Assembly: GCA_964019425.1 (NCBI GenBank) | Contig: OZ025796.1 | Span: 1,302,001-1,366,000 of the forward strand | Reading direction: 5' to 3' | Length of the DNA stretch: 64,000 nucleotides | From: Flectonema sp. DT1601 | Lineage: Eukaryota | Part shown: positions 3,189 to 60,020 of the stretch, piece by piece | Numbering within the stretch: the stretch's first letter is position 1 | Layout of the letters: the number at the start of each line of letters is the position of its first letter | Notes under the pieces: generated by a model | What the model was told of the DNA's origin: nothing | Seen by the model: the letters and a program-made list of their open reading frames with translations, nothing else | Database searches by the model: none | Made by a program: the position numbers and the translations under genes

Positions 3189-5204
3189 ATGGCATCAGGT
3201 GGAGCATACAGCTTATTAGTATTTGTTGATAATGCGGTTACCGCTGTTAAGATCGACTTAGAAGCGAATGACGTAAACGAACTCGTTCTTCAAATTCAAC
3301 GAATCATCGGACTTCCTCTCGCCAGCATATGTTATTGGGATGAGGTTTCACGTGAATACGTACAACTCAGAACATTAGCACCATTGACTGATGGAAAATG
3401 TAAGATTTGGGTCGCTACTAGAGGAGTTAAAGCAATGCCCATAACTGAAGATAAAGACGCATTAGAATTCAGTTCTATTCGAGAACAGGTAGAAAAACTA
3501 ACTCCACCAGAAGACGGACTTGCATTTCGAGTTAATGAAATCTTGAGAGTACAGAATCACACTTTGGATCAGAAATTTCGGATGCGAAGATCTCAGTTGT
3601 TCGATCCGTCGGCGAGGACGACTTTAAAATTTCATGCGGGAAATCAACCGACTGATCAAATATTAAAAGAGGGATTCCTAATTCCAACCCGACCAGGTCC
3701 CTACGGACTCGGCGTCATCTTCAGTTCTGACATAAGCGTCGCGTATCACACAGAAGCAGTGAGATTCTTATTATGTGAAGTAGCAATAGGAAGAAGTACA
3801 ACTCTACACAATGAAGAAGATCGTGGAACCACATACGAAGTGTTACAACACATGGGATACGATTCAGTCATAAGTAGAACATCAGCACATCCGACATTTG
3901 ATCAACTTGAAGAAAACATCGTATACCATCCTCACCAGGCTATTCCAAGATATTTAGTAACTTGTAACCTTGTAAAGAGTAGAGGTCATAAGTCAAAGTT
4001 AAATGATCGATGTAGGCAACACAGTGGTGAACAATTAAAACTTTGGTGTTTAACATGTGGTCACATGGTTTGTCCTTATTGTATGTTTGGATCTCATGCT
4101 GGTCATACAGCGAAGGGATTAGATGAAGTTGCATCAAAAGAAAGAGATCTACTTATGAGATGTGAAACAGTTTTACAAAGAACTATCGAACAAAGACAAA
4201 ACGATCTCGGTGATCTTGAAAAAATGAAATCTCACTATCACTCTGTTGCAAGAGACACAGTTGATACTCTTGGTAGAGATATCACTGATATTAAAACACA
4301 ACTTGATACTCAACACCATGAGTTGTTGAGACAGATTGAAAGTACTGAAAATACTGTTGGTCTTCGTTTAGCTGGTTTTGTCAACCCGTTGCAACAAGAG
4401 GTGTGTTTACAGTTAGATATTTGAAATTAGTTAGGCGTATTTTTTTTTTATCAAAAAAAAAATAAAAAAAAATAAAAACAGCTCGCGGAATTGATTGGAA
4501 AACAACAACAACTCAGAGAGGCCCTGGATATCGCTAAGAACTCAAGGCCTAGTTCGCAGGCGGAATTCTTAAATCGAACAGTTGACCTGCATAACAGTCT
4601 AAATACGGTACCGAAGTTTGATGAGGCTCCAGATGTGACGACATTCGCTCCATCTGTTGAGTTTTTTATTGATACTAAAACAGTGAAAGATGCAGTGTCT
4701 CACATGCATGTTGAAGACAGAGATCCTCATCCACACAAACAAGTTCATCCTCTTGGAACATTAGCTCTTCAGAGTGAGGGTCTTCTATCAAGAGATGACA
4801 GCTTAGATACAACAGAGTCGAGGTTGTTAGCTCTTGAGACTGGTCATATCTGGGCTATTCCCAACTTTAATGAACATATCAGTGCCAATCAGACTGTTGA
4901 TATATTTTCTGATCCTTTCCTCATGTCTGGACAGTATTGGGAAATGAAACTATCTTTTCTCCCACTCGAAAAATCAATTGCTGTCTACTTGTATGCCGTC
5001 AGACATCAGTTTCGTACAAACTTTCGTGTTGCAGTATTCAGATCAAAACGTTGGCATGTAAAGTCAACTCGTAATTGGGCTGATGAATTTCGTGGTAGAG
5101 GTTGGGGAATTAAACCGTTTATTTCTTATGATGAGTTATTAACATATGTTCACAATGACACATTAAAATGGGTGATTACCTTTACTGGAAACGGTTTATA
5201 CTGA
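3189..5204 (+). CDS. PARP-like (ADP-ribosyltransferase fold) + B-box zinc finger + coiled coil + MATH domain protein, ~644 aa; exons 3189-4400, 4482-5204
   Basis: Phase-0 intron 4401-4481 (GTGTGT...AAAAACAG) joins ORFs 3189 and 4491. PARP-like motifs FHAG..ILKEGF..YGLGVIFS..LLCEVAIG..EENIVYHPHQAIPRYLV; B-box CRQH-x7-CLTC-x4-CPYC-x4-HAGH; MATH-like IWAIPNF..SDPFLMSGQYWEMKL..GWGIKPFISYDEL. Confidence 0.85.
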
Positions 5205-5682
5205 GAGAGGGATGACTCTTTGTGGAATCTACCCAAGGCAAGGGTGCTGCTGATCGTTATTTTTGTTGTATTGTTCTTACGTTACGATATATATATTTAG
5301 TTTAGGTTTTTGTGTTATAAAAAAAAAAACAAACAAACAAACAAACTCGGAACTTTAAAACTATTTAGTCAGAGAAGGTCAGCCTGATTACCTTTTTTTT
5401 TTATTTTTTTTATTTGTACCTACGAAACCTATTGTGGTGGAAACAGAATCGTGGTAGGGCAACTTTACCTGTTCCTTTGTAAGGATTGAGTGAAAAAAAA
5501 AAAAAAAAAAAAGTACGAGTTGACCAATTCTTTTTCCCCCCCTTTTTATTTTTGTTTTTCTACCTTTTTCCCTAATGGTATTATTAGATTGCATAGAAAT
5601 TTATAATTATTTACGAATTCTCAACTTTTTTGTTTTTTTAAAAAAATATCATAACTTTTTTTTCCCCCAGAAGTTAACAACG

Positions 5683-9102: not shown

Positions 9103-9829
9103 ATGGGTCAGAACCACTCATTCAGCGCAGATGAGCTCGAGGAGCTTCAAAAGGATACAAATTTCACTCAGGATCAAATCGTTCGGTTGCATAAAAGATT
9201 TCGTAAACTTGACGTCGATGGAAACGGTGAGATCTCATGGGAGGAGTTCGAGTCGATTCCCAGTTTACAACAAAATCCCTTACTTGGGAGGTATGAGAGT
9301 TCCTTTTTTAAATTCATTCATTGCACTTCTCTTAATCCAACTAAAACAGAGTACTAACAATATTCGACACTAACGGTGACAGAAGTGTTGATTTCAGAGA
9401 ATTCGTAAAGGCGCTATCTGTCTTCTCAAACGACTGTGCTAAGGAGAGAAAATTACAATTCACCTTTAAGATGTACGACATTGATGGTGATGACAGGATT
9501 AGTAACAAGGATTTATTTAAAACTCTTCAGGTATGAAATCAGTTTTTATGAAGAACAACTAATGTCATAAAACTAATTTTAACAAAAAAAAAAAAACAGA
9601 TCATGGTGGGTTCGAACTTGAGTGATATTCAACTTCAGCAGATTGTTGACAAAACGTTCTTAGAGGCCGATGAAAACAGGTTTGTGAAAACTACTTGAGT
9701 ATTTAATAATGACACCAACACCAACACCAACACCAATAACAACACAGAGATGGATACATTGACTTCTCCGAATTTGTGAAAATAGTTGAAGCCAGCGACT
9801 TCGGCGACAAGCTCACCCTTCAGTTCTAA
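9103..9829 (+). CDS. CNB1: Calcineurin B regulatory subunit, copy 1 (176 aa); exons 9103-9290, 9350-9530, 9600-9679, 9748-9829
   Basis: Myristoylation-type start MGQNHS; RLHKRFRKLD, QQNPLLGRV, MVGSNLSDIQLQQIVDKT; four EF-hand loops (DVDGNGEIS, DTNGDRSVD, DIDGDDRIS, DENRDGYID); three GT-AG introns restore the frame. Confidence 0.95.
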
Positions 9830-10966: not shown

Positions 10967-11721
10967 ATGGGTCAGAACCACTCATTCAGCGCAGATGAGC
11001 TCGAGGAGCTTCAAAAGGATACAAATTTCACTCAGGATCAAATCGTTCGGTTGCATAAAAGATTTCGTAAACTTGACGTCGATGGAAACGGTGAGATCTC
11101 ATGGGAGGAGTTCGAGTCGATTCCCAGTTTACAACAAAATCCCTTACTTGGGAGGTATGAGAGTTCCTTTTTTAAATTCATTCATAGCCACCAATTCCAC
11201 TTCTCTTAATCCAACTAAAACAGAGTACTAACAATATTCGACACTAACGGTGACAGAAGTGTTGATTTCAGAGAATTCGTAAAGGCTCTTGCGGTATTCT
11301 CAAACGACTGCGCTAAGGAGAGAAAATTACAATTCACTTTCAACATGTACGACATCGATGGTGATGACAGGATTAGTAACAAGGATTTATTTAAAACTCT
11401 TCAGGTATGTACATTCGTATCTCCAAAAAAAAAAAAGAGAAAAAAAAAAAGCCAACAACGACCCTATTTCAACACAGATTATGGTTGGGTCGAACCTGAG
11501 TGACGTTCAACTTCAGCAGATCGTTGATAAAACATTCATAGAAGCGGATGAGAATAGGTATTTTTAAAATTCATATTATAATCACCACACAGTTGCTACT
11601 TGAAAAAAAAAAAACTCAAAAACACAAAACACAACACAGAGACGGCTATATCGATTTCAAAGAGTTCGTTAAAATTGTAGAGGCCAGCGACTTTGGTGAC
11701 AAACTCACCCTTCAATTCTAA
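10967..11721 (+). CDS. CNB1: Calcineurin B regulatory subunit, copy 2 (176 aa); exons 10967-11154, 11224-11404, 11478-11557, 11640-11721
   Basis: Same exon structure as copy 1; five residue differences (S/A, K/N, I/V, L/I, S/K). Confidence 0.95.
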
Positions 11722-13176
11722 GGTCGATTTACCCATTATCGTCCAATGCTGTAATCATAGAAACACATACGGGGTGTTCGCATCCACCAAATCCAACTTC
11801 TATTTCTTTCCCCCCCACCCTTTTTTTTTTGCCTGCAATTTATTTTCCTTTTTTTTCCTATTTCCCACTGTTCCTTACTTACTAACTTTGATACATATAT
11901 TTATATCATTATAAGTTTACTCAACCAGTTGATCCCCTTCACTGATCTTTACTTCTAAAAAGTAAGGTTTGTTCAAGTACAATGAAGGAGGAAAAAACTA
12001 AAAAAAACTGACGAGTCCTTTCTGACATGAAACATTAATAAGGGATGAATGGGTTTTCTGTTTTTCTTTCTTTCTTTCTTTTTTCTTTTTTTTGTTGTTC
12101 TTACGTTGGTGGCCTTGTAGGGAACATGTCTCTTCTTGGTGACTTAATTTTGACTGGAGGTTGTTGGGTGTTACCACGCTGAAATCTGCTATGAATCTCC
12201 TGTATGTTTACGATCAAAGAATGCGATATTTTTGGTTGTTTGTATTTCCGGTGTGTTTGTTCTCTTTTCACTCGTGGGAATTCCCTTCGGGATGAAAAAA
12301 AGAGGGGGAAAAAAAACAACAACAACAACAATAAATCTTGTCGCCCAGTTTTAAGGGAAAATATTAACATATATACTCGTAGCAAAAACTATTACACAAA
12401 TGCTTGAAATATAATAAATAAGGATCCGTGTCTTACCTATTGTTATTATTTATTTTTTTTATTTATTTTTTTTATATAATTTTTTTTTTATATTCCTCTT
12501 CCTTCCTCGTCGCCCTTTCAAATTTGAAAAAAAAAAAAATACAAAAAAAAAGAAGAGTTTTATCTGACATTCCCGTTGATTTTGGAGGCGTGAAATTCCT
12601 TAACAGCGCTTTAACTGCTTCTCTTGTTTAGTAAGGCAAGGTCATTGTTCCCAGTAAGGATGCAATACTATTATTGCTTTTGGTAGTTTTGTTGTATTTT
12701 TATGTATCATAAAATGTGTTACGAAGCAAGCTACGAAAAGGGGAAAAAAAAAAAAAAAAAAAAAAAAAAACTAACTAGCAATAGTAGAGTAAGGCGGCAG
12801 ACTGGGTTAATTCCTGTGTTCGGATTCTGAGGAAATCTGAGAAGCAAGCTGTATTCACTATTTTTTATGTTTTTTTTTTCTTCTTCTTCAACGAGGTGTC
12901 TTAGTGAATATGAACACCAGCCACGAAAAAAAAAAGGGGGGGGAAAGGAACGATGGGAAAAAAAAAAAAAAAAAAAAGTTAGTCTGCATCCTTCTTATTA
13001 TTTTTTACTACTGAACATAGTACCCAGCAAGTATGCTGTGATCATTACTTTATTATAGCTGCAAATAATAATTACTTATTGATTGTGTCAGTCTAACTTA
13101 AAAAAATAAAATGCAAATCAACCACTCTAACCGAGTCGTTTTTATTATAAATATCTCATTACAGATGAAGTAATAA

Positions 13177-15645: not shown

Positions 15646-16057
15646 GAAGGGTCTGGTAGTCTACCTGCTCAATCATTCTCTGTTGCTTTTTTTTTTTTTT
15701 TTTGCCTTGAGTTCAGATTTATTGCTTTTATACTAACCAAAAACCAGTTCAAGTCTGAAAAGACTCAAAGATCACCCTCTCAGTGAGTTAAGTTACTCTT
15801 TTATATTTTCTTTATTAAATACAGACACTGATTCTGTATATAAACCCTATTTTCAAATTGTAGATAATTTGAATTTCGTGGAGTCAGTTTTTATTATAAA
15901 CAATTGTCTTTACAGACAATCGATGCTTGTTGCATCAGTTTGTTTGCTCATGTGGAAAGTGATTCCACTTTATCTTTTACACATCATTCTTTGGCAAGTA
16001 TACTCTTTTTGTGTTTATTTTAACTTCTATCACAGAATTTAAAAAAAAAAAAAAAAA

Positions 16058-18802: not shown

Positions 18803-19045
18803 TGAACCTTACCTGTATTAGATTTATTTATTTATTTCATTCTTTTTTTTTGACAAACTGTTTTTCTTTTTTTTTTTCTTCTGTTCCCTTTCCATTTCCC
18901 ATATTAATATTACAACTCCTACATGCGTTCATACTATTAGATATTTATGTTACATTGAAAGCACGATGAGATGTCTCAAATAACTTTAATTCTTTTTTTT
19001 TTTACAGGTTGAAAAAAAAAAAAAAAAAAAAAAAAAAATCAACAA

Positions 19046-19729: not shown

Positions 19730-20146
19730 GATTTTTTTTCTTTTTTAGTTCAGTTCTGGGAATCTTCGCTGGCTTCTGTTGGCTGCTTTTTTTTAAAAAA
19801 ATTATATTATTATTTTGATGTCATTTACACATTGATTGGTAGTCAGATTTGAGAGATGGATTTCTTCTTTTTAAAAAAAATAAAAAAAAAAAATTCGTTC
19901 ACCAGGTGGAGGCGCTCAACTATGTTCACGTGGCCTCCAATGGCATTATTTATTTATTTGCAGTCATTTACTACGCTGCCGTTGACAGTCAAGATTGTCG
20001 GAGAAATTGTTATTCCTTTTGAACCTTGATAGTAAAGTATCAATTTACCCCTCTGTGACTCTTGACTTATTTATATTATTTCTCAACATTGTACAAACTG
20101 ACTGAGTTATAATAATATTTTACTTCTTCGGCAGATCTTATTCAAA

Positions 20147-22213: not shown

Positions 22214-22351
22214 AGTACTGCCTTGTCTGTCGACTTTACTCTACTAACCAACACAGTTCCAGCTTGCGCAGAATAATATTAGTTAACTATGTGAATATAA
22301 TATTAAATAAACACACATGAATCTCTCAGGTAATACATTAATAGAATAAAT

Positions 22352-22543
22352 ATGGCCGACGCTGTTTTAAAAGGATTGAGCAGGATGGCAATTGCCGCAA
22401 GTGGATTTGGATTCATCGCATCCCAATGCACCTACGTCCTCTACCCAGGAGAGGCAGCGATAGTATACGATAGGCTGACTGGTGTTCAGCATGATGTAAA
22501 GTATGAAGGATTTCATTTTAAGGTATGGTTTGATTCCTGTTGT

Positions 22544-22575
<32 letters not shown>

Positions 22576-23340
22576 CATTTGATGCATCTGATTTAATAAA
22601 ACAACAACACCAAAACAGGTACCATACCTTCACTACCCTAAGGTTTATGACATACGTCTCCGACCATCAGTGATTGAGACGATGACGGGTACAAAAGATC
22701 TTCAAAAAGTACACATCAAGTTACGAGTACTTTACATGCCTGCGGTTGACAAGTTGGGAATTTTGTACGAGACTCTAGGGTTAGATTACAGCGAGCGTGT
22801 TCTTCCATCCATCGGAAACGAAATTATGAAAGCAGTAGTTGCGGAGTACAACGCTGAAGAACTTGTTGTAAGACGTGAACGTGTCTCGATGGAGATTAAG
22901 AAAAGAATAACACTTAAGGCAGAACAAGATTTCAACATCCTTCTCAAAGATATTTCTCTTATGGACATCAGTTTTGGAGCTGAATTCATGCAGGCAGTTG
23001 AGGCTAAGCAGGTTGCCCAACAAGAAGCCCAGAAGTTACAATGGGTCGTTCTTAAGAACGAACAGGAAAAACTCGCTGCTGTCACTAAGGCTGAGGGAGA
23101 AGCAACTGCTGCCAAGTTGATCTCTGATGCTGTCAGCTCTGCTGGACCAGGATTAGTATGTGTTGTTTTTATCTATTATTAATGTAAAGAATAAGCAACA
23201 AACAAACAAACAAAAAAAAACAGGTTGAAATCCGTAAAATCCAGGCCGCTAAGGAAATTGCGCAAACCCTCTCTCAATCTCCTAATGTCTCGTACGTTCC
23301 AAGTGGTGGTAACATCCTCTTGGGAGTTAAGTCATCGTAG
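22352..23340 (+). CDS. PHB1: Prohibitin (PHB1-like, SPFH family), 274 aa; exons 22352-22522, 22619-23155, 23224-23340
   Basis: TGTKDLQKVHIKLRVL, LGLDYSERVLPSIGNEIMKAVVAEYNA, AVEAKQVAQQEA, AEGEATAAKLISDA; two phase-0 introns. Confidence 0.93.
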
Positions 23341-23598: not shown

Positions 23599-24026
23599 AC
23601 GAAGAACCATTTTTATCATCGTCATCCTATCTCTGTGATAAAATGGCGTTATTGGTTTTTTTTTTTCCCTCTTTTTTTTTTTCCCCATCTAAAATCTAAA
23701 AGGCAATTCCATTTCCTGTTTTTTTTTTATAGTTTACTTATTCAGCCTATCCCTGGAACTCTCTCAAGAGCAGGTTTTTCAAAAAAAAAAAAAAAAAAAA
23801 AAATAAATGGAGGAAAACAATGGAAAAAAAAAAAAAGAAAGAAAAAAATGTCCATCTTGAAAGGCACGAAATCATAAAATGATAAGTAACTTGGCAGTTA
23901 ATTTTGATTTAAAAAAAAAAAAAAAACAAATTCACGTAAATTAATAACAATACTTTTCATCTCACGCAGACAAGACATGATGTGTATAGCTTCTTCTTAT
24001 TCGTAACCCTCTCTCTGGTTATAACA

Positions 24027-26060: not shown

Positions 26061-26175
26061 GTTTGGCATTGATATTTACACTTTTTCTTTTGGTCGTATT
26101 TAGATTACAGTCCGTTCTCAGTTGTTTGTTCATTTCTTACTCTTCAAACAGAATAAATAAAACAACACCCACATA

Positions 26176-31339: not shown

Positions 31340-31374
<35 letters not shown>

Positions 31375-36409: not shown

Positions 36410-36479
36410 CTCCCCCTCTCTTTCCTTCCTTTCTTCGCATCAGTTTTATTATTATTACTACAAGACAACACTATAAGAC

Positions 36480-36947: not shown

Positions 36948-37077
36948 CCTCTGCTAACAAAGTAAGCCGACTCACAGTTTTTTCTAACTCTTTGTGAGTG
37001 GCTCAGTAATCGATTTGTGTACCTATTATTTTTATTTATTGTTGTTTTCACAGTACCTTATACACAACGAAAAAAAC

Positions 37078-41900: not shown

Positions 41901-44058
41901 TTTCACACGTCATTTATAAATATTGAAAGTATTAAAAAAGGAGAACCATTGCGATTCAACAAGTCTGAATTAGACAAAGCGTGTAAAGATGAAAAACATA
42001 CATCATTAAGACGAGACCTTCAGGTTGAGGTGTATTTTCAATTAGTTGACAACAATGAAGAAAGTCCTGTCTTAAACGATCAAGAGGTTCCTGAAAAAGT
42101 TAGTTCTGAAGTCGCAAATGAACCCTTGGCATCTCAATTACAAGAATCAGACGATGGGTCGGATGAAAATGAAATAATATCTTGTGTATCACAAAGACAG
42201 AGTGGTATTCTTCGATTAAATTGCGTTGATTCCCTCGACAGAACTAATTTAGTATCTTTCTTTGTCGCTCTTCAAGCATCGGGTGAGCTTCGTCGTCTTC
42301 TTAGAAATGACAGCGAACCCTCATTTCCATTTCAACAACTGACACTTCCACAAGTGAGATCATATTTGGGAGAAGATTTGGTTGGATTTCTCGCTGAAGC
42401 GTTTGTTTCAAATGGTGACGTCTGTTCGCTGTTGTACACAAACACACCCGCTACTCATACCGATGCTATCCGTGAAATGTCTCCTCGACTGTCAAAGGCT
42501 CAAAGTAACGCAAAACTATCAGTTATGAGGAGGTATCAAAATACAGTAAATGATACTGGTCGTCATAATGGTATTCTTGCATTCTTGGGATTGTTAAAGA
42601 AACCACCTCATCCACCTGCAGTACTGACTGGTGTGAGTAGCGCAGTGATATCTGGAGATATGAAACACATCAAAGAAACGAATGCTGACCCAACCTCTCT
42701 GTTAACAGGTCTTCCTGTTGGTGATCACCCTTGGATAACTAAGGCTGAGAATATGAGAGTTATTATTCTTTTACCAGCAGGTGTTGGTGCGGTCACTGAG
42801 GTGTCGTTGTGTTTTAGAAATGATCCAACTGGTGATGATGAAGGTTTCCCAACCAGACTTGAAATTGAAACAGGAAGTGACTTAAATTCTCTTAACTCTG
42901 CTCTTCCTCTAATTGCAGTTCCGAGAGCTGCAGATCATTGTTGGTTAACTTATGAGTTACAATCCCCAAGTAGATCCGGTGATAGAATTATTTCATTATC
43001 GTTTTCTGGTTGTCTGGGGTCACAGATGATCCTTGGGGGATTCCGTGTCCTCGGATGCGGTGTTGAAAAACCAATCAATACTCAACAACAAGACACAACA
43101 AATACCTTTTTGTGTGATAAAATTAAATGTACCACAGACGGTCAACTCACTTTCGCACCGAGTGGTATCTTCTTTATTGAATGTATAGAAATATTAAAAG
43201 GAACGTGCAGCAAGGAAATCTCAGTTGCCATTGGTATGAACCTTTCTATTATTATTTTTAATTTTTTCAAAAGAGAGAAAATAAGAAAAAAAATTAAAAA
43301 AAAAAAAAAAAAAACACAACAGCCATGAACCTCTCTGGAGCATCTGACGTGGAGTTCACTACCGACGGTAATCTATTGAAGTTGGAATCACCAATGAAAG
43401 GAAGGCTTATTATTATTAAGGGTGCTTCTAGCGATTTAAAAATTCAGATTCATGGAAAGAGAGAGCCAATGGCATTCAAGACTCCTCCACCTCCTTCGTC
43501 AGGATTGAGCTTGCGAAGACGTCAACTGTCTCGTAAAAAAGCGAGGGTGTTAGCGACGGTTCAGGTTTGTTGTTTTTTTATTTTATTTTTTTTATGGAGA
43601 AATAATGATATTTTAAAAATTAAAAAAAAAAAACTAAAAAAAAAAACAGGATGATGAAATGTTGGGAGCACTATTCGTTCTCATCGCAGAACCGAATGCG
43701 AACATTGTTGGCATCCGACTTTCTACTGCAGCACCAAACATTCAATCAAAAGGCATCCTTGTTGGAGTCGCAAATGATCCTGCAGTACAAACACTACCAT
43801 CCTCAAGTGCTAGATCAGCGATCATTGAGTATGTGTTTTCTTTATTTTATTTCATTCGACACACACGAAATCAAATAAATAACAACAAACAGTTACGCCG
43901 AAGACTTTGCGATCCCAGCTTGTGCGGAAAAGACTGTTCTCGATTATCACTTTTCTCAGCCAGTTAAAGGATCACTCGTTAGAATTGAAGTCCAACCTCT
44001 CACAGTTGATTCTTCATTTGTTGCTCTTTCCAGGGTATCTGTTCTGATAGCAAGCTGA
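38928..44058 (+). CDS. SAC9-like phosphoinositide phosphatase with an inserted PTEN phosphatase + C2 module, ~1630 aa; exons 38928-43233, 43323-43564, 43650-43828, 43893-44058
   Basis: SAC motifs RRSCKHAGTRYNARGID, VANELECELI, WRRGSVPIGW, RLNCVDSLDRTN; PTEN motifs LVSQQKLRFQEGGFNLDLTYITPRIIAMGFP, YNLCSERDYD, PFEDHNAP, HCKAGKGRTG, VTIPSQRRY, FHLWFHTSFI..ELDKACKD. Confidence 0.92.
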
Positions 44059-44876: not shown

Positions 44877-47143
44877 ATGAGTGACGCATATCTGTCGGGT
44901 GACTCACATCGATCAAACAGATCAACAGAAGGGAAGTGGGCTGTTCAAACATATCAAAAAAAGAAAGAACAACGCGTTGGTGTCTACCACCACGACAGTG
45001 ATGGAGGTCGACGAGAACGTCGTGGAAACCAACAACCAATAAATTCAAGACTCGGATTGTTATTTATATTAATGGTGTGCGGTGTTGCAATGCATGTTCT
45101 GTATCAGAGGTATGTATTTATAAAAAAAAAAAAAAAATGTAATACTGAGTAATAATAATATCAAAACAGCACATCCCAACTTCCCATTCAACAACTGTCA
45201 GGAGGAGTTCAACAGAAACTCGCTGCCTGGATGCCAGGAGGTAGTTTTGGAGATGAAATAACAATACAACGTGATCCGAGAACTAAGACTTGGGGAATGT
45301 ACATCACTCCTTCACTAATGCTTCGACGAGTTGATGAAAAAGCCCCTGCGAGAACAGCAGGACTACTACGATTTGTTTCTCGTAAGATAACTCACGCTAA
45401 TGGAGTATCAGTACTGACTCACGATCAATTTAGAAGTGTAGAGTCACGTGTTGGGGACTCCATCACTCTTCGATTTGCTCCTTCTATGGTATGCAATATT
45501 CTTATATATAAACTACTTCTACAACTTCCATAACAAAACATGACCACTTCTACAACTTCCATAACAAAACATGACCACTAAAAACAATAAAACAGTTCGT
45601 AGTCGGAGCAACAGTCGTAGTAATCGAAAGAGTAATATTTGAAAGTGGAAAAGGAGTTGACGTTGGTATGACTGGGGTTGTTGTTAAGATTCCGGGTGAC
45701 ATAGATGGATCTGTAGCATCAGTAAGTACGGCTGGTATTGGTTTATGGGATGCTTTCCCAGGTCAAGTTGAACCAACAGAAGACGCTATAAAACTAACAC
45801 CAGGAATGGCTGTCAGAGCTCGTAAAATGATAATTTTTCAAAGTGGAAAACGAGTTCCACAAGGAGCTGTTGGTGTTGTGAACAAAGTACCAGGTGAGGT
45901 TATCGGATCTGTTGCTGAAGTAACTGTTGGAGGACTTAAATGGGACGCAACAGAAGGACAATTAGAAATCATCGGATCTCTAGCATCTGATAAAGAAACA
46001 CCTCAACCGCCAACTATCGCTACTGAAGAAGTTGCTCAACTGTTGGAGTCACTCGGACATCAACAATACCTTCCAAAGTTAATTCTTTATGGATTTGATA
46101 AACTTGATTTCTTATCACAATCTACTAAAAGAGATGGTGAAGCTCTCAATATCAAACCAATGCATTGGAAACGCATCGTCACAGAAGCCGGGAAACGAGT
46201 TCCCCTATCAGGACGTGGCCGTTCTGGTTTGGAACACCTCTGCAGCGATCTCGGTGAAAAGAAACTTTTACCAAAACTACTTAAGTACGGTCTTGACAGA
46301 CTTGATCAAGTAGCTCAGGCTCAGAATGTTGAAGGTATGGTTGCTTTGTTTTGTATACTCATCCCTCACAAACTACTATTTGCGAAATTAAAAAAAAAAA
46401 CTACCAAAACAGGTCAACATCTTGGACTGAAACCTGAAACCTGGAAGCGTGTTGTTGATGAAGCACGTAAAAGGGTAAACATGACCACCAATGCTATGGA
46501 ACAACCACAAACTAATACTCATCAAAGTCTGTATAGATTACTACAAGATGTTGGGTTAATAAAACATTATAAAAGATTAATTGTTTTTGGTTTAGACTCT
46601 GTTGAGAGGATGGCTAACTCACAAAACATAAGTTCAACAATAGAACTTCAGGGATGGGAATGGGACAGAATACGTACCGAAGCTAACAACAGATTGCAAG
46701 GTAAGGCTCCGACAATATTCGTTTCATCCGATCCTGAGGGTGAGAAAGAACAGGATCTCATTGAACATGAAACACTAGCTAAGAAATACGATCAAGAAGA
46801 TGTCGGAAAGGAAGAAAGAACTGAAGCACATTCTTCTACTGTTGACACAATCAGAGGAGGAGGTCAAACCGGAGGTGGTCTCTCTATCACAGATCGATTA
46901 GTTGGTGGTGCCGTAGCTAAGGAAGAAGAAGGTCGAGAGCGATTTAAAAATGTTATCCAACGACTTAGTAACTTACCACTTCAGGAGAGGACTGCGTTAC
47001 TTCAGCAGGTTTGTTAACCTTCTTTTTTTTTTTTTTTTTGAACTAAAATTTATACTGAAATCTTCGTTATGTTATGTCTTGGGGAAAAAAAAAAAAAAAC
47101 ACAACACACACACACACAGGCCGAAGGCAAATCAAAAGGATAA
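44877..47143 (+). CDS. Type II membrane protein: TM + PDZ + 2 SH3-like beta repeats + 3 SAM-like repeats; exons 44877-45109, 45170-45488, 45596-46334, 46413-47008, 47120-47143
   Basis: TM LGLLFILMVCGVAMHVLY; PDZ-like ITIQRDPRTKTWGMYIT..VDEKAPARTAGL..ITHANGV; SAM-like VAQLLESLGHQQYLPKLILYGFDKL..WKRI three times; four GT-AG introns give a continuous frame. Confidence 0.78.
45515..45576 (+). repeat. Perfect 31-nt tandem duplication inside an intron
   Basis: ACTTCTACAACTTCCATAACAAAACATGACC present twice. Confidence 0.95.
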
Positions 47144-47394: not shown

Positions 47395-47426
<32 letters not shown>

Positions 47427-48931
47427 CAAACAAACAACTAGTCTGCCAGCCTTTACCTATAGAAAAAACAGTGGTTGTTTACGTTTTTAACAAACGACAA
47501 AGTTGAGCAATCTGGCGACATACATCAGTAGCTGCAAAAAAGCAAGTTATTGCTTACTTTTCCCCTTTTTATTTTATTTTTGTTTTTTTTTTAAAAAAAA
47601 AACATTGTTTAGTTTTATTTTATGTATTTATTGCTTTTTTTTTACTTATTACTCCACTTGGTTTTTCCAGTATTCTCTATTCTTTTTTTATTTATTCTTT
47701 TTTGCTAACACACGAACTTTTCAAACAAGAATGAAATTCCTGTTTTCTTCTTCTTCTTCTTATTTGAATGCTTGAAGAAAAAGAAACTCGTGTTTGGTAT
47801 TCAAAATTTCCCCTTTTTTTATTTTTCCTCTTCTTTTTCTGCAGCAATTAGAGAGACAGTCAGCTGAAGAGAGACTTCAATTCCAACCACAACTGACTTT
47901 GTCACTGAAGGTTTCTGGAGGCAGTGAGTTACGTGCTTCCTGTCTGGTTGATTTCCTTTTTGTAGTTTTTTGTTTAACTTTAGAGGGTAATCGATCTTTG
48001 GGGCACTCTCCTTCCCCTGATAATACACCCCCACCACTAATGATGTGGATTCCGTACTGCACTGAATGACAACAAAGCTAAGTTAGAAAACATTTATTAT
48101 AATGTAAAAGTTTTTACGTCAATTGCCTACACTAACATTGGTTATATTTATAATACAATAAAGTTGTATTTTTACGTACAAAAAATCGAACAGTTAATCC
48201 CCTACCAATCAGTGGTGTTTGGCCTTTGGAAGTAATACGTGAATTTCTATTCGTTAGGTTTGTTTACAGTGATATGTAAGTCTGGGAACAGACTCATTCC
48301 AGCCTTTCATTCAACGGTATCAGGATATTCAGATTCTCCATATGTGGAGACATAAACTGATTTGCGTTCACAATAAACGATCGCGTTGAGGTCCTAATGA
48401 TGGGGGTGGCCATTCTTATGGATCTCCCTTCTTTCTCACGCTGTGGTCGCTTTCAAAAAAGATGTTCACATGAATTCTTAGGCTTTTGGGAAAACAAAAA
48501 ATAATAATAATAAAAAAATGAGAGAATTTTTCAAATAAAAGAGAGAAAAAAAAAAAAAAAAATTAAACTAAAGTCTGATTGCGATTGCCATCAACTTTTA
48601 TTTTTTATTTTTTTCAAAAAGATGCAGTTCCTTCACAGTTAAGATTTCTGTGTCTCACAAAAACTGATTAAAAATATCTGCATCTGGACTTTGCTTGCTT
48701 TTCTTTTGAGACCCAACTGCTGAGGTCATACTTCTTTTCCGACTTCTTTTTGTTCGTTAGTTTACGTTTTGCGACACGATGCCGGGTAACAATAGGTGAT
48801 CTGACTTTTCTTTTATTAAATTCAACTTACTTACGTCTCTCTGCAGGTAGTACATGGTGGCTGTAAATTCTGTTTGTATTTAGTTGGTTGGTTTAAGTTG
48901 CTACGTATTCGACAGCCAAGAGGTTCATAAT

Positions 48932-51900
48932 ATGAATCCGCGGAAGCGACAGGCTGCATCAGCCACGTCCTTCCGTATCGTACCTCCAACTCCACCAACT
49001 AACCCTGCTACTCAACATGTTCAACCACAACCTGTGCAGTCATCATGCACCACTTTAGGACGTCTTGTTTTGATTTGTGTTATTATTGTTAGTACGGTTC
49101 TCGCTATTAGGTTTGTTGTATTCTTTTTATATACATACAGTGATCTTCTTCTTTACAAACAAGTCTTATATATTAAACTCAAAAACTCAAAAACAGCGGA
49201 TATCTAGAAACCGGATCTCAAAAGCCTTCACTCGACTCAACCATAACACTGAAGAGATCTTCTCCAGTGGAATCGTTCGGTGCGAAGTTCAGGTGTGTGA
49301 AGACGTTGAATTGGTTTTAATTAGCGTTGAACTAAGTAATTAATAAAATAAATAAAAAACAGTAACCAACTACAACTAACAAGGGTAGAACCATACAGCA
49401 TAGCTCAAGAAGAAGGGATGACAAAGTTTGTTGGAAAGGTGCTAAGCCGCGTTAACGGAGTTGCGATATCAACTTATGAGGAGTTGTTAGACTCCATGCA
49501 GAATGTAAACAGTGTGCAGTTTCAATTTAGTAAGGAAACAGATCCACACAAAGCCACTGCTGCAGTTAAGGTAACAGAACCCCCCATGACATTTGTAATT
49601 GGACAGGCTGTTCGATTCTCTAAGTCAGTCTTTGCAAGTGGAAGACAGATCTCCTCTGGTTCTAAGGGAATTATTATGACTCTTCCTGATGAGAACGAAG
49701 ACTTCGTCGCTGAGGTTGAAATCAATGGCATCCGCTACGATGCCAAAGCCGGAGAAATTGAAGACATTGTCGAACGCGACTCGGAACCGAACTTGTACCC
49801 AAAAGAAATATTTTTCCGATCGAGTATAATTTCACTTGATTTTAAGATAACGGCACGCCGTTGGAGTCTATCGCCTACCTGGGAGGAGTCTAACGGAATG
49901 GTTTTGTATACCAATAAAAATGGACGTTGGATGGTTGGACACGGCATAACCAGCATGAAGAATAACAGAGGCTCCATTAGATCAAAGTATAAACATAATG
50001 GAACAATGCCACACTTTATTTCTGATTGGGATATTCTCTCAAAGGAGAGTAAACGATGGCAAGCATTTCCAGACCTGATTGCTACGGCTCCAGGGGAACC
50101 GGTGAAGGCTACTGTAGTCAATTCTGCTACTTCTGAGAGTAAGCCTGTTGATAATTTATCTTCCAATCCACCAGTTTCAGTACCAGTCACTTCTTTAGTG
50201 GTATCCAGTGAGAGTAATGTTGTTATCCCTACAACAGTAATACCGGTTAGTTATCAGTCGACTGCGGCTCCTGTTGTTGATGTTGTTCGGGTCGCTGTGC
50301 CGTCGTCAACAGAAATTGGTAAAGTGGAATCATCGCAGTCGGATACAAATAATAAAATTATGAGAGAGGATGAGGAAATTGATTTTGATAAAATAAAAGT
50401 GAGTGAGGAAAAACCGGTGAAGCAGCTTCCTCCGCCGCCACCACCACCACCACCACCACCACCACCGCCGCCACCGCCGCCTGATACTCCGAAGCCGCCT
50501 CCGCCTCCTCCGCCACCACCTCCAGCAACACCGATCCCAACGGAGTCCAAGATTGCGGTCGTCACGAATTGTAAGTCCGAAGTATCGCCTCGTATTGTCT
50601 TTGAATGGCCGAGTGGTACTTCTATATTTGAAATCCGTGAAAAGGACTGGAACAGAATGCCCATCTGGAAAGATCAACACGGGAATTGTTTATTCTCAAC
50701 CAACGGAGGCAGGTGGATGATTGGACCTTCTGACGGCCCTTCCAACAACAGAGGTACTCTCTTAGCTAATAAGAATCACGAAGGTCAGATGCCGTATGCG
50801 AGTGAGGAATGGAAATATCAAGAATCGGGAGGTTGGAGTCTCGTAAAGGTTACGATGGATTGCAAATCTCAAATAATTGGAACTCCACATTCAGGTTCTG
50901 GTCCTCCACCATTCATTGTCATCACCCACTCTCGTTTTGCGGGAAGTTTTAAACTTATATCACAGAAGTGGGCAGGTAGATCAACGTGGGCTGATGAACA
51001 CGGTGCTAAGTTATTTATTAATAATGGTGGGTATTGGATGGTTGGTATACCAGAGGAGAACAAAGGTTTCTTAAAATCTAAAACCATAAACCAGGCAGTT
51101 CTTCCACACCTAACAAAAGAGTGGGAGATTCAAAACAAAGGATGGAATCCGTTTGATGGAATAATTGAAGGGTTGGATTCTCTTACTCCTTCCTCTTCTC
51201 AAAGTAGCAGTACACACACTCGTGGAAGGGGAGGAGGAAGGAGTCGAGGTGGGTCCTCTATCACCGCCGCTGCTACTTTACCACCTGCGAGTCCTTCATC
51301 GAAGTCTTCAGGAGGTATAAAACCTTTACAGAAATTGAATCGCGCAACACGTGATCCCAGTCTCCCTCATGTTCAGTTGGTCATTGCTGATCTACCTCAC
51401 ACTACCGATACCTGGCAATGCACCTTCGGATCGATATTCGGAACTGCACTTCAAAATAGACATGACACTGCTAACCTTGAAAAGATAAGCCTGACTGTCA
51501 ATACTGACATTAACACACCAGTTGACCTCGATGGGAAGGTTGTTAAAATTGCGATGTTTCGCGAGCCTATTACTCGAATGGTTGCTGCCATCAGTACTGG
51601 TGCTGCTCACTGTGAAGGTTTGTAGTTTGTGGTAATGTGTTGCTTATCATTTCTTTTTTATATAAAATAATTAACAACAACTACCTAGGTATTGAGAAGC
51701 TTACTCCTAAGAGTTTTGTTCGACTGAGTGCAGCTCAACGATCTAAGTGTATTGGACTTGATAGCAATGCCTATGTTAAACATCTGTCTGGTACGAGTGA
51801 AACAGTTACAAAGGAAGATCTCGATAGGGCGAAGGAGGTTCTTTCAAAACTTGATTTTGTTTTCGTTTTGGAGTATCTTGACCAGAGTTTTTTTCAATTG

Positions 51901-52441
51901 TATGTAACAATATCATGTTGAGTTTTCTATAAAAAAAAAAAAAAGAAAAAATTCACAACACAGAAACCAAGCTCTCGGATTAGGCCTAACTGGATATACA
52001 CAATGCTGGCCTAAAGAGCTCTTACGACCGGAACCCGAGGTATGTCGCACTTTTCTATAAAATAAAATAATAAAGTGAAGTAGGTAGTCATAACCTTTAC
52101 AAAATAAAATACAGCTTCAGGATATCTCTTCAGAAGAAAATGAGTTCGACAACGCTCTCATGGACTACGCTAAGTCTTTATTTAACGACAAGTATAGGGA
52201 GGTTTCCGACGGTTATGGAAAATCTAGTTGTCAACCCGATGGAAAAAAGTGTTGGGATAGAACCGATCCAGATGTATGAAATTTTCTTTTTTTTCCCCTC
52301 TTCTTTCAATTTTATAATAGTTTGTTATCAAAAGTAAATTAAATAAAACAGTTGAAGGTCCGCTTTAATGAAATTCACCTCCTCCCAAATGCTAATTCGG
52401 GTAAGATTATGTGCGGCATAAAGTGTACATTCAAAGCTTAA
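48932..52441 (+). CDS. Type II membrane mosaic protein: TM + PDZ + SH3-like + 3 Trp-rich repeats + poly-Pro + degenerate sulfotransferase-like domain; exons 48932-49110, 49197-49292, 49363-51617, 51689-51899, 51964-52039, 52115-52273, 52352-52441
   Basis: TM LVLICVIIVSTVLAI; PDZ-like ITLKRSSPVESFGAKF..VLSRVNGVAI; repeats W..xGxxL(F/Y)xxxxGxWM(V/I)G..(R/K)GxL; sulfotransferase-like MFREPITRMVA, AKEVLSKLDFVFVLEYLDQS, NEFDNALMDYAKSLF. Last intron uncertain (unspliced stop at 52279). Confidence 0.75.
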
Positions 52442-53383
52442 TTTCACGTTGTTTTCATGTGGACAAGTCTTTGACGAGGTACAACAAAAGAAAGAAAAAA
52501 AAAAAAAAAAAAAAAGAAACATTTTCAGTTTTGTTCTTTACACTTTCTGGTACCTATTGCATAGTACACACCAATAATAACACATTACACGTGCGGCCGA
52601 TGGACGCGGGTGGTGGAGTTTTTATTTTTAATTTTTATTTTTTAAAAAAATTAAAATAATTCTTGTCAGGAATTTGTAATTTTTTTATCCCCCTGGTAGT
52701 GAATATTTTAAAAAATTAATAGAAACAAGTGAAAAAAGTCATTTTTTTTCACTCAGAGTTTGTTAGCCTAGTCCTAGTCATGAGATCTTTATTTGAGTTG
52801 CATACGGGTGTGTCCCTTCAGAGATTTTTTATATCTTTCCTTTTCTACTGAAAATAGTATGGTGAGAAGAATGGCCCGACAACTTCCATAAGGCAATCAG
52901 TGGAAGACACAGTCAGTCATGGCCAGTTCCGCCTGCGCAATCAGTACAAAAAGAGAAAGAAAAAAAAATAAAGAAAAAATCAAAAAAAGATAGATTTTTT
53001 ATTTTTTTATTTTCTTCGCCCGTTCGATATCGGTTCCCTATTCCCTTGGCAACTATTCATCAGGTCTTGCTTTGCTTTTTTTTCAGTTGAGATTTCGTTT
53101 CGTACATTAATGTAAACCGTTCCCGCTCAAGATGAAGCGAACGGGTACCGATTCACTTTATGTTTTTAAAAAAAAAAAAAAAAAAAACTTTTTTTTTTAT
53201 TCATTTCATCATTCACAGTCACAGACTGAAATGAAGACGGGAATCTATCTTTTTATAGCACCCCTGCAACAGGCTACATGTTCACCTAAGTTAACTGTTT
53301 AGTTATAAATAATTTATTCTCTCAAAAGCAGTGGCCTAACCACCCATACATCTTAAGCAGTATATATATCCGCCCCCCTTAAA

Positions 53384-54905
53384 ATGGGGGATATGATGGA
53401 GGAGCTGAAGGCCCTGAGAAGGAGCAAGGTATCTATTAGATTCCTTATCTTAAATAAAGTAATGTCATAACATCTACTTACATAACAAACAATCAATAAC
53501 AGGAACAAGCTAGCGCGGCAAAGGCAGTCGCGCAGGATCTTCGATGGCAGGAAGTTCACAACAGTCACGGCGGTGATGAACGCACTTCCGATTTCACACA
53601 CAACCCCCTTAAAGTTCCAGCAACAATTTCAGGATGCCTACAGGTATTGTTAACTTATTTGTATTATTAATTTATTTATATATTTCTATAATAACCCAAC
53701 CAATAAAGGTATCCGTCAACGATGGTGACTGGCATTCTATGATAGTTGAAATGAGAGGTCCATTCTTAATATGGTACGAGAAAGGAGTGAATCCGGAAGA
53801 AGATCCCCAACAAGTATCAAAGCAAAGTGTGATAGGTTACGACATCATTGAGGATGAGAGAGGAATAATAAAAATTCAATTCGACTCTCACAAATCTGTG
53901 AAACTAGACACCGAAGGAAATACACAAACATTTCCAACAAGTAAAGACTGGGCGACTACTATTCGAAAAGCTGCCAGACAAGATGCAAAGAGAAGTGGTC
54001 AAGCACAAGACTCAGCCTATCAGAATCACGAAGAGCGGTATTCAATAAATGATATTTCTTTAATGGAATTAATTGGTAAAGGAACTTACGGTGAAGTTTG
54101 GAAAGCAACCCTCACAAGCAATGGTACCACTAGCCTCTCAGCTGTAAAGATAAGCCATCAACAACAAGAAAGAACTGTAGAGCAATCTCTTTTAATGAAA
54201 ATGGATTGTCCGTACGTCGTCCGCGCTGATGGTGTGTTCACACATGAGGGTCGTAGTTATATTGTAATGCCGTTATTAGAAGGAGGTGACTTAGATCTTC
54301 ACCTCGACTTGACTCCTCACGGTTATTTCACTGCCGATCGTTCTCGCTTCCACGCCGCCGAAATTCTTTGCGCTTTAGACTACCTTCATTCAAAGGGAGT
54401 CGTATACAGGGATTTAAAACCAGAAAATGTTGTTCTTGACGTCAAAGGGCATACCGTCCTCACAGATATGGGACACGCGAGGTCTCTCTCTAACACAGCT
54501 CGGGCAGAAACCTTTTGTGGAACTGCCGAGTACTTGGCGCCTGAGATTCTTAGTTGTGACGGACATAATCACGCAGTTGATCATTGGGCTCTCGGAGTGT
54601 TGATGTTTGAAATGATAACTGGATCTCTTCCTTTTACTGGAAGTGGTCATGAGGGTGATTTATATGAAAAAATATTAACAACTCAGCCTGAATTCCCTGC
54701 CTATGCTGATCCAGATGCTCATAATTTGATTCTTTCATTATTGGAGAAGGATCCGAAGAGGCGATTAAAATCACCATCGATAAAGGAACACCCCTTCTTC
54801 GCCTCTCTTAACTTCGCCTCAATTCTTGACATGACTCATCCCCCGCCATTCGTTCCAGACGTCGAATTAGTTCGTACGATGATGAGAAGAAAACTAAAGG
54901 ATTGA
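53384..54905 (+). CDS. PH-domain AGC-family Ser/Thr kinase (Akt/PKB-like architecture), 460 aa; exons 53384-53428, 53503-53643, 53709-54905
   Basis: IGKGTYGEV, AVK, YRDLKPEN, DMG, TFCGTAEYLAPE, DHWALG, PPPFVP; PH-like N-terminal region ending DWATTIRKA. Confidence 0.9.
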
Positions 54906-55598: not shown

Positions 55599-55629
<31 letters not shown>

Positions 55630-57660: not shown

Positions 57661-60020
57661 ATGACGCTTCGACGTTCAGGGAGTGGCCTGGATATCGATT
57701 CACAAAAGAGAGTTGCTGATCTCACAGAACAAATGAGACAACTCATGGCTGACGAAGAACAGCACAGCGATGAGAGTGACGACAATAATACTGCGGAGGA
57801 GTTCTGGGAGTCTAATATTTGTAAACCGGATTTAATAAATATCGAAGACGCTGAGAAGAAAATTTTAGAAAAACAACTTCAGCAGACTGTTGCTAATCTC
57901 GGAGACACGAAAGACGACCTCCACTTTGCTGAACACAAATTACGTGAAGCAGAATCCAGAAACAAGACACTCATAACTCAACTACTCAGTGAGAGGGATA
58001 GAACTAATTCATATAATAAACAAGCGTTGACTGGGGCACAGAAATTTATGTTTCAAAAGAATTTGATGCTCCAAAGAAGAGCATTAAATAAAAAACACAA
58101 CAAAGCAGTTGAAGAACTCCACGAGAGAATTGAATCCCAAGAACAGTCGCTAATGTTTTCTCACGACACTCTACTGAACCCTCTTCCTGAATCAATGAAT
58201 TCAGCACCTCCAGCAGGTCCACATGAATATATGAGAGAATCAGAATCGTTTAAGGAACAACAGTACATTGAAGTTCATAAAGCTGTTGATACCTCTGCTG
58301 ATGATGAATACGCTGATATAAAAGCAACGCAATCACTATTCGAATCACAACTTACGAAACTTAGAAAAGACATCCGACCAGTTATGAAAGACTTCAAGGA
58401 CAGTACTGACAATAGTTTAATAAATATAGAAAGGATCTTATGGCCTCCTGTTGGTCGACATCCGAGACCAAAAGACGCGTTTTCGAGAGCTGCAAAGGCG
58501 CAGATGGCGAAGTCCAAAATGCTATTGGCTGACGGCTATCGTAGACTTAACAATGCTGTTCTATCATTCGTAGCTGAGGAGAAAACAGTAAAAGACTCAT
58601 GGACACGATCATATCAAGACACCGTTAGTAAATGTGACGTAGAAATTCAAACAGACATCCAAACTGGACCAACAGAAGAAGAATTACGACTCCAATCAGA
58701 CCTCGATATGATAAAAGACCGAATGAAAAAAATGAGAGAACAATCAATAAAGAAAGAAAGGACTGTTCAAACAGCTCTTGATAGGGTTAAGTTAAATCTT
58801 CAATACATCCAAGAAAAAGCTACAGAACTACACAAAGAGATGTACACAGCATTACATGCGTGTTTTAAACATAGATTTCGATGGATAGACAGACACGTTG
58901 ATCACTTCAGAGATGCATCTCAACAAAAAGACCTCCGTCGGAATCCCCAGGAAGTTAAATACAACCTCTCACTCGGATTAGTAGTAAGCAAAGACATCGA
59001 ACAGCTAAAACGATTTACAGAATACTTCACAAGAGATGACTTCTTCGGACTCGACATGACTTCGAAGTATGTTCCCCTTAATCATATTATTTATCGAGGT
59101 AGTTTGTTTAGAATAAAATATAAAATTAATAAAACAGGGACGCTCCAATTCCTGGATGCCCTCCATCATCCATAACATGGAAACCAGGAGGTAGAAAGAA
59201 CGTAAAAAGAAAGTCATCGATGAGTTCTTTAACGAGAGCTGCTGGTAGTGAAAAGGATTTGGAACATTCTCCGAGTCCTCCGAGGAAGATGACTGCGCCA
59301 GTTTGTTCTGATTCTGGAGTGTTGTCGCATGCGGAGTTGAGCATGAATAGTAATCTTCAGATTCTTGGAATTAATGAAGTAACAAGTTCTTCAACACTTC
59401 CAATTGTTCCACCGATAGCACCTCCAAAGATTCATGGATCCTCTCCTCGTAAAAGACATGAAGTAATTGATAACGAGCAAACTTTTGATATTCGTCACGT
59501 CAATCGACGTCGATCTGCAGCCATTACTCAAGAGGAGATTGCCCTCGTCGGGTCAGGAAATATCAACAGCCGTCGTCCTTCTATTGGAGGTGATTCATTA
59601 TGTACTGTTGAGAGTATTCAAACAGCTCCAATGGTGACTTCTGTTAAACAAATTGAAGAAAGAAGATCATCAATTGTCCCTCGACTTGAATTAAAAGGAT
59701 GCAACAGAAGTGTTAGTTCTGAACATCGACAATCTCCACATCCTCCTGGTGCTGGAAATAGTGGACGGTCACCATCTCCCAGGTCTGGGAGACCTCCGCG
59801 GTCTGCAGGTGGAAGTGGTCGAACCAGATCGCAGAGGCATTTAATTGCTTCGAAATCAACAATAGCTGAACCGCAGACTCAGACTGCTGAAGATGTAGCT
59901 AAGGCTGTTAGCAGTCTGTTAACGTATCCAATTAAAAATATGACAGGATGGTGTTCCCCTCCTAAACACAGTGTTGTAACTCAACCGGATGGTACTCACA
60001 CTCTCTCAAGTGGAAGATAA
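57661..60020 (+). CDS. Hypothetical coiled-coil protein with a Ser/Pro/Arg-rich tail, ~762 aa; exons 57661-59066, 59138-60020
   Basis: Phase-2 intron 59067-59137 (GTATGT...AAAACAG) joins ORFs 57661 and 59220 in frame. Confidence 0.8.

Follow-up and report, generated by a model that had tools for sequence, protein, structure and literature searches.

Two compositional classes of 3' splice site in a 64-kb genomic window of a diplonemid

The window analysed here, a 64-kb stretch of the Flectonema sp. DT1601 genome (64,000 nucleotides of contig OZ025796.1), contains two compositional classes of 3' splice site: the A-rich acceptors of predicted introns, and U-preferring CAG sites shortly ahead of start codons, which are candidate acceptors for trans-splicing of a spliced leader (SL). 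All counts come from this single window, and the claims built on them are sequence inferences. At positions -18 to -4, the 28 non-redundant intron (cis) acceptors contain A 0.70, T 0.13, C 0.17 and G 0.00, compared with A 0.24, T 0.44, C 0.23 and G 0.09 for 24 pre-ATG CAGs, and A 0.31, T 0.32, C 0.19 and G 0.19 for 210 distant intergenic CAGs. The cis and pre-ATG classes thus depart from the background in opposite directions. Between them the p-values are 1e-9 for A, 2e-8 for T and 0.075 for C; what tells the two apart is U against A rather than pyrimidines in general. An initial annotation, made from the letters alone, had set A/C-rich cis acceptors against pyrimidine-rich upstream sites; all 16 motifs that it quoted are present where it had placed them. 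In a restricted set of nine supported introns and the 13 pre-ATG sites that it had not quoted, the A content is 0.68 versus 0.27 (p = 2.5e-4). Leave-one-out classification was correct for 51 of 52 sites, the single miss being the intron acceptor at 11477.

On sequence evidence the window is diplonemid DNA, and hence from an SL-using lineage with one-strand gene clusters. The nearest relatives of the prohibitin exon at 22619-23155 are diplonemids (best matches 87-79% identity), with D. ambulator at 87% and D. japonicum at 83%, followed by R. euleeides, D. papillatum, R. humris and L. lanifica; the exon differs from all of these. In a tree of 21 rows, the prohibitin of the window falls inside the diplonemid clade (support 100/99) with the shortest paths to D. 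ambulator and D. japonicum, its exact placement being unresolved. All 26 modelled genes (26/26) lie on the plus strand, and the GC content of the window is 30-44%. A metagenome scan with the prohibitin gave eight loci at 41-67% identity, and the two of these eight that were inspected (L001 and L006) yielded no leader or upstream region of a diplonemid transcript.

The 26 curated gene models contain 34 GT-AG introns, each of which restores a single reading frame (34/34). This agrees with the roughly 35 frame-consistent introns counted initially. A possible 35th intron, of 1470 nt in Z5, one of eight tandem gene copies (Z1-Z8), was kept out of the statistics. The non-redundant set of 28 was obtained by leaving out the redundant introns of Z2, Z4, Z6, Z7 and Z8 and intron 1 of calcineurin B copy 2. 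A dynamic-programming gene finder without a splice-site composition term predicted 19 introns, and 16 of the 19 acceptors are the same as in the curated models; of the three discordant predictions, one skips an exon start and two wrongly fuse adjacent genes. This is a partial control and not a fully independent one, since the training intervals were hand-chosen and A-runs score as non-coding. Homology or paralogy supports nine introns, in the genes for calcineurin B, prohibitin and type 2 IPP isomerase. The spliced prohibitin aligns without gaps to that of D. papillatum, the calcineurin B exons are contiguous and colinear on 1mf8_B, and exons 1 and 3 of the isomerase leave a gap on 1vcf_A that fits the middle exon within one residue, while this short middle exon, searched alone, gave no match. 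Four introns are weak: the one at 46335-46412 is in frame without a stop, and those starting at 43829, 47009 and 52274 alter the product by fewer than 30 residues. For most of the set, it is almost certain that the introns are real. Their length is 59-111 nt (median 76 nt), and their donors (n = 28; 17 GTATG, 5 GTTTG, 2 GTGTG, 2 GTATT and 2 GTATC) agree with a U1-type consensus. No non-GT-AG ends of the non-conventional euglenozoan type were found among the curated introns.

The AG-adjacent pyrimidine tract of U2-type introns is lacking in the cis acceptors, with pyrimidines at 0.30 in the -18 to -4 interval. Instead, 20 of the 28 end in the heptamer AA(A/C)ACAG, which occurs 48 times on the plus and 23 times on the minus strand of the window, and 10 times in intergenic DNA. 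Positions -7, -6 and -4 are A in 25, 25 and 26 of the 28 acceptors, respectively. Internal AGs at least 30 nt from the donor number 30, none of them within 17 nt of a cis acceptor. The introns are also polar, with T at 0.51 in the 5' half (+6 to +30) and A at 0.65 at -28 to -4. The initial statement that intron ends have no polypyrimidine tract therefore holds near the AG but not farther upstream, nor at the exceptional acceptor 11477.

The almost fixed AA at -7/-6 could mean that branch point and 3' splice site are fused, as in Giardia, Trichomonas and Spironucleus, with the branch adenosine lying in this dinucleotide; the Giardia consensus VCTRACACRCAG is likewise A/C-rich and tract-free (PMC6679479). 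Such a fusion would be compatible with a role of composition in the choice between cis- and trans-splicing, but as a different cause of the A-rich ends, and it appears improbable. CTRA with its A at -6/-7 is found in only 3 of 28 introns, unlike the fused type with its invariant CTRAC at constant spacing; the branch sequence YTRAY is not enriched, being present within 50 nt in 12 of 28 introns against 13.0 +/- 2.3 in shuffles; and the A/C bias extends about 25 nt back rather than forming a short fixed motif. The opposite composition of the two intron halves might alternatively allow a G/U-rich 5' half to pair with an A/C-rich 3' half and so join the intron ends, as in euglenid and hemistasiid non-canonical introns. 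Although five of the 28 introns fold with z <= -2.4, the mean z of whole-intron folding is -0.6, own ends pair no more stably than swapped ends (p = 0.61, 0.34 and 0.37 for 12, 20 and 25 nt), and end pairing has been reported to be lower in diplonemids with canonical introns (PMC12621601). Pairing as the basis of the A-rich ends is therefore extremely improbable.

The upstream class was defined without regard to composition: going upstream from a point 5 nt ahead of the ATG, the first non-coding CAG was taken. Such a site was found for 24 of 25 genes; Z6 was left out of this set, calcineurin B copy 1 has no CAG within 150 nt, and the gene at ATG 5683 was left out of the statistics. The pre-ATG CAGs differ from distant CAGs in pyrimidine content (p = 5e-6). 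Of the 25 genes, 17 have a CAG 10-40 nt ahead of the ATG, where 8 sites are expected (p = 0.004), and the pyrimidine enrichment is aligned on the CAG and not on the distance to the ATG (permutation p = 0.001, or 0.002 with one paralog kept). All eight leaders of the tandem paralogs Z1-Z8, though diverged, carry an AG 26-34 nt before the ATG (six CAG, one AAG and one TAG). The tracts are modest, with a mean pyrimidine content of 0.67, a median longest tract of 9 nt versus 6.5 nt for cis acceptors, and a tract end at a median of 10 nt from the AG. In D. papillatum the SL is found on essentially all mRNAs, genes form unidirectional clusters and 5' UTRs are about 70 nt long (Valach et al. 2023, PMC10161547); by extension from this relative, the pre-ATG CAGs are very probably SL acceptors.

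These sites could otherwise be the ends of ordinary cis introns in 5' UTRs, or chance sites in U-rich intergenic DNA. A loose donor, GT[ATG]TG, indeed lies upstream of 10 of 24 pre-ATG CAGs compared with 48 of 210 background sites, and 58 of 407 distant YAGs are also at least 73% pyrimidine. However, the main donor GTATG is found 55-150 nt upstream of only 2 of 24 pre-ATG CAGs, which is at background level (16 of 210; 17 of 28 for cis acceptors), and both the CAG enrichment and its alignment, as well as the near-universal SL of D. papillatum, speak against this explanation, which we regard as very unlikely.

The class of pyrimidine-tract AGs just before starts, as proposed in the initial annotation, is confirmed statistically, but two of its examples are not simple cases: the next ATG after 5670 opens an ORF of 22 codons, and the first ATG after 23969 opens one of 9 codons. 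The region 5670-6188 has a strong pyrimidine-tract CAG, the 22-codon ORF and then an 80-aa ORF from 5946. For a spliced route from ATG 5683, no typical donor combined with an A-rich acceptor works. In the leader of the SNAP gene (35142-35258) both acceptor styles could be seen together by eye: downstream of a U-rich CAG at 35142 there may be a 71-nt intron in the 5' UTR, with a GTATC donor at 35188 and an A-rich AAG end at 35258.

In diplonemids, transcription is polycistronic in the style of trypanosomes and mRNAs are universally SL-spliced, and the genes also have many introns; one spliceosome must therefore choose between cis- and trans-splicing at each AG. We propose that the U-versus-A difference beside the AG biases each site toward one or the other, composition thereby contributing to routing; we hold the chances of this to be evenly balanced. 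As in the relatives, transcription would be polycistronic and almost all mRNAs would receive an SL at a U2AF-type tract adjoining the AG. CAGs behind U/C tracts, 10-45 nt ahead of start codons, would recruit a U2AF-type complex unaided and take the SL. The introns of 59-111 nt would be recognised over their whole extent, through U1 binding to the GUAUG-type donor with help from the U-rich stretch behind it, with branching at an A within the A-rich zone, and the acceptor used would be the first good CAG past the AG-free spacer. There is precedent for U1 aid of the TIA-1/Nam8 type from U-rich sequence behind the donor, and for tracts upstream of the branch point in fungi. Since U is kept away from the AG, the intron end would be a poor independent acceptor, which would limit SL addition in the middle of genes and the premature polyadenylation coupled to it. 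Donor proximity would likely supply part of the choice.

Several observations weigh against this proposal. Apart from the looser donors upstream of pre-ATG CAGs, 5 of the 24 upstream sites are paralogs, and all are drawn from a single window of 64 kb. The 5' portion of the introns is itself U-rich (T 0.51), and in 4 of 28 introns, two of them weak, a pyrimidine tract of 16-36 nt ends 38-80 nt before the AG; as this is a trypanosome-like distance, distance alone would not hide these AGs from the SL. Acceptor 11477 is cis and yet pyrimidine-rich upstream. The 15 nt preceding the ATG are also A-rich (A 0.55), behind a T-rich zone at -21 to -70, and it may be usual for A to be enriched in front of coding sequence; a T-then-A order precedes both kinds of coding boundary, and the AG is placed differently within that order. 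Intron AGs "hidden" from the SL, as first suggested, are accordingly an overstatement. Beyond the window, C is preferred in the intron tracts of most other diplonemids, where CA-rich motifs occur (PMC12621601), the introns of kinetoplastids keep their tracts and permit SL addition at exon 2, and E. gracilis introns and outrons have like C-rich tracts (PMC11170887). The C-rich tracts of diplonemids and the like tracts of Euglena indicate that a sequence code for cis versus trans is not generally required.

Some of these points favour an explanation in which composition plays no part in routing and the presence of an upstream 5' splice site decides, as in the outron rule. The A-rich end would then be a lineage habit, a C/CA-rich ancestral tract having drifted to A in an AT-rich genome and been kept free of G by selection against extra AGs. 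The C preference and CA-rich motifs of other diplonemids, the likeness of cis and outron ends in Euglena, the A-richness before the ATG, the U-tracts within introns and the GC content of the window are all consistent with it. On the other hand, the A residues at -7, -6 and -4 are tighter than drift would suggest, T at 0.13 is far under the intergenic 0.35 although T cannot create an AG, and every SL acceptor on a polycistronic transcript should have some GT upstream. A decision by the donor is plausible, though on balance unlikely.

The A-rich intron ends are not new to the lineage but have been published for D. japonicum (Thakur et al. 2025, PMC12621601): A is the commonest tract base in that species and, weakly so, in L. 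lanifica and R. humris. U2AF1/2 are present alongside such ends (PMC12621601). A diplonemid-gained family, OG0019132 (DIPPA_35898), is annotated as U2af large subunit beside the canonical U2AF2 (DIPPA_10128; PMC10161547, Additional file 6), in line with the initial guess that a divergent or duplicated U2AF65/SF1 might exist, although the label is automatic. It has members in D. papillatum, S. specki and H. phaeocysticola, but not in R. humris (PMC10161547). The PTB-like family OG0000268, also labelled automatically, is expanded to 11-32 copies in four diplonemids versus 0-3 in kinetoplastids (PMC10161547, Additional file 6). A stronger form of composition-based routing would be two 3' splice-site recognition systems on one spliceosome, with a U-tract/U2AF65 system reserved for the SL and a U-independent one for introns, whose ends are A-rich in the window and in D. 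japonicum and C-rich in relatives. The U-independent system might act via the diplonemid-specific second U2AF-large-subunit-like protein, and sequence alone would sort the acceptors on polycistronic RNA rich in introns; this form is rather doubtful. The available text of PMC12621601 does not contain the term "spliced leader" or a comparison with SL acceptors. No paper contrasting intron and SL acceptors of diplonemids was found in a search that was thin in subscription journals and had Additional file 1 of PMC10161547 and the supplements of PMC12621601 outside it, and within this reach the contrast seems to be undescribed.

The decision between cis and trans is a general question in all SL-using lineages. 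The near-perfect split (51 of 52 sites) makes a sharp tract-swap test possible, in a group that has a transformable member, and copy Z5 is a natural test of competition between cis-splicing and SL addition. The contrast suggests why the tract of D. japonicum is A-rich, for which there has been no explanation, and would help to predict genes in a marine group that is abundant. Should routing by composition fail, the window still represents a second diplonemid species whose spliceosome works without an AG-adjacent pyrimidine tract.

The coordinates of all introns and candidate SL acceptors are listed in Table 1. The tandem copies Z1-Z8 (27238-34659) encode a Cys/His-rich protein of 94-95 aa that carries CxxC motifs; a Pfam search with each of the two exons of Z1 gave no match. 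Their coding sequences and introns are near-identical, while leaders and spacers have diverged. The insertion in Z5 (30498-31967) is not repeated in the window, and has two pyrimidine-rich CAGs (31159 and 31597); an Rfam tRNA model matches it weakly at 31808-31879 (32.8 bits), where ARAGORN found no tRNA. The two tandem calcineurin B genes (9103-11721) encode proteins that are 97% identical without gaps, and have three intron positions in common; intron 1 is near-identical in the two copies, and introns 2 and 3 have diverged with ends that are still A/C-rich in both. Type 2 (FMN-dependent) IPP isomerase is encoded at 37078-38282 with two introns and five matches to solved isomerases. Other genes include one at 3189-5204 for a single predicted protein with a PARP-like catalytic domain, a B-box and a MATH domain, and a 1630-aa gene at 38928-44058 with SacI phosphoinositide-phosphatase, PTEN-type phosphatase and C2 domains. 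At 62938-62987, where no gene was modelled, there is a GT-AG stretch whose donor is GTGAG and whose end is pyrimidine-rich; by eye, decayed leucine-rich-repeat-like coding pieces seem to follow it near 63361-63660.

Table 1. Predicted introns and candidate SL acceptors of the window, with the support for each
Feature	Position	Strand	Support
PARP/B-box/MATH gene intron, A-rich acceptor	4401..4481	+	frame restored, 644 vs 411 aa
Calcineurin B copy 1 intron 1	9291..9349	+	exons colinear with 1mf8_B
Calcineurin B copy 1 intron 2	9531..9599	+	exons colinear with 1mf8_B
Calcineurin B copy 1 intron 3, AC-repeat acceptor	9680..9747	+	frame; position same in copy 2
Calcineurin B copy 2 intron 1, near copy of 9291-9349	11155..11223	+	curated model
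Calcineurin B copy 2 intron 2, exception: pyrimidine-rich run before AACACAG	11405..11477	+	curated model
Calcineurin B copy 2 intron 3	11558..11639	+	curated model
Prohibitin intron 1, 36-nt pyrimidine tract ending 38 nt before A/C-rich acceptor	22523..22618	+	gap-free alignment to D. papillatum prohibitin
Prohibitin intron 2	23156..23223	+	gap-free alignment to D. papillatum prohibitin
Tandem Cys/His-rich gene copy Z1 intron	27325..27402	+	frame, 94 vs 34 aa
Copy Z2 intron	28112..28193	+	curated model
Copy Z3 intron	28859..28952	+	curated model
Copy Z4 intron	29703..29780	+	curated model
Copy Z5 possible 1470-nt intron	30498..31967	+	intact exons either side; outside statistics
Copy Z6 intron	32662..32738	+	curated model
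Copy Z7 intron	33409..33502	+	curated model
Copy Z8 intron	34311..34458	+	curated model
Type 2 IPP isomerase intron 1	37410..37486	+	exon spacing fits 1vcf_A within one residue
Type 2 IPP isomerase intron 2, pure A-run acceptor	37578..37661	+	frame; exon spacing on 1vcf_A
SacI-PTEN gene intron 1	43234..43322	+	frame
SacI-PTEN gene intron 2	43565..43649	+	frame
SacI-PTEN gene intron 3 (weak)	43829..43892	+	gene finder and curated model
SAM-domain gene intron	45110..45169	+	curated model
SAM-domain gene intron	45489..45595	+	gene finder and curated model
Possible intron (weak)	46335..46412	+	in frame, no stop
Possible last intron (weak), CA-repeat acceptor	47009..47119	+	curated model
Gene starting 48932, intron	49111..49196	+	curated model
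Gene starting 48932, intron	49293..49362	+	gene finder and curated model
Intron ending in TAG	51618..51688	+	gene finder and curated model
Gene starting 48932, intron	51900..51963	+	curated model
Gene starting 48932, intron	52040..52114	+	gene finder and curated model
Possible last intron (weak), would skip pyrimidine-tract TAG at 52320	52274..52351	+	curated model
Protein kinase gene intron 1	53429..53502	+	frame
Protein kinase gene intron 2, ends AAG	53644..53708	+	frame
Gene starting 57661, intron	59067..59137	+	gene finder and curated model
Candidate SL acceptor, 16 nt before ATG 3189; second CAG at 3183	3155..3172	+	inferred
Pyrimidine-tract CAG quoted in initial annotation; next ATG opens 22 codons, gene uncertain	5653..5670	+	sequence
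Candidate SL acceptor, 12 nt before ATG 13177, mixed A/T	13147..13164	+	inferred
Candidate SL acceptor, 22 nt before ATG	16018..16035	+	inferred
Candidate SL acceptor, 38 nt before ATG	18990..19007	+	inferred
Candidate SL acceptor, 12 nt before ATG	20117..20134	+	inferred
Candidate SL acceptor, 22 nt before prohibitin ATG, short tract	22312..22329	+	inferred
Candidate SL acceptor, 57 nt before in-frame ATG, with an intervening short upstream ORF	23952..23969	+	inferred
Candidate SL acceptor, 24 nt before ATG	26134..26151	+	inferred
Candidate SL acceptor Z1, 30 nt before ATG	27190..27207	+	inferred
Candidate SL acceptor Z2, 31 nt	27976..27993	+	inferred
Candidate SL acceptor Z3 (AAG), 33 nt	28721..28738	+	inferred
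Candidate SL acceptor Z4, 28 nt	29570..29587	+	inferred
Candidate SL acceptor Z5 (TAG), 26 nt	30367..30384	+	inferred
Candidate SL acceptor Z6 (copy of Z1), 30 nt	32527..32544	+	inferred
Candidate SL acceptor Z7, 30 nt	33274..33291	+	inferred
Candidate SL acceptor Z8, 34 nt	34172..34189	+	inferred
Candidate SL acceptor, 36 nt before ATG	36426..36443	+	inferred
Candidate SL acceptor, 24 nt before ATG	37036..37053	+	inferred
Candidate SL acceptor, 11 nt before ATG	38899..38916	+	inferred
Candidate SL acceptor, 16 nt before ATG, weak tract	48898..48915	+	inferred
Candidate SL acceptor, 23 nt before ATG, weak tract	53343..53360	+	inferred

Among known systems, D. japonicum shares with the window GT-AG introns with a GTATG donor and a CAG acceptor, A as the commonest base before the AG and a weak YTRAY (PMC12621601), and the CA-rich motifs of its relatives are a further likeness (PMC12621601). 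It is nevertheless a separate species (prohibitin 83% identical over the tested exon), and the introns of the window are longer (median 76 vs 41 nt). The one-strand arrays, the AG after a U-preferring tract, the avoidance of G at -3 and the short 5' UTR resemble the SL acceptors of T. brucei (PMC2936537, PMC9639853), where trans-splicing is driven by U tracts, does not work with (C)17 and is impaired by purine insertions (PMC9639853). In that species the tract starts at a median of 43 nt upstream and is 18 nt long (PMC2936537), whereas the window tracts are shorter (median 9 nt) and closer (end at a median of 10 nt, a measure that differs from the T. brucei start). Kinetoplastids have three intron-bearing genes, whose introns keep tracts. 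Giardia, Trichomonas and Spironucleus likewise have an A/C-rich end that is tract-free before the AG, but within a near-invariant motif of 12-13 nt with CTRAC (PMC6679479), while the window introns have no detectable branch consensus. In Schistosoma mansoni, trans-spliced acceptors are more U-rich and have longer tracts than cis acceptors, and composition has been proposed to influence the choice (PMC5832876); the difference there is graded, among introns with pyrimidine tracts, and that of the window is a split between A-rich and U-rich sites. Euglena gracilis, finally, is a euglenozoan with cis- plus SL trans-splicing and CAG acceptors, like the window, but both of its classes share a C-rich tract (PMC11170887), whereas those of the window differ sharply.

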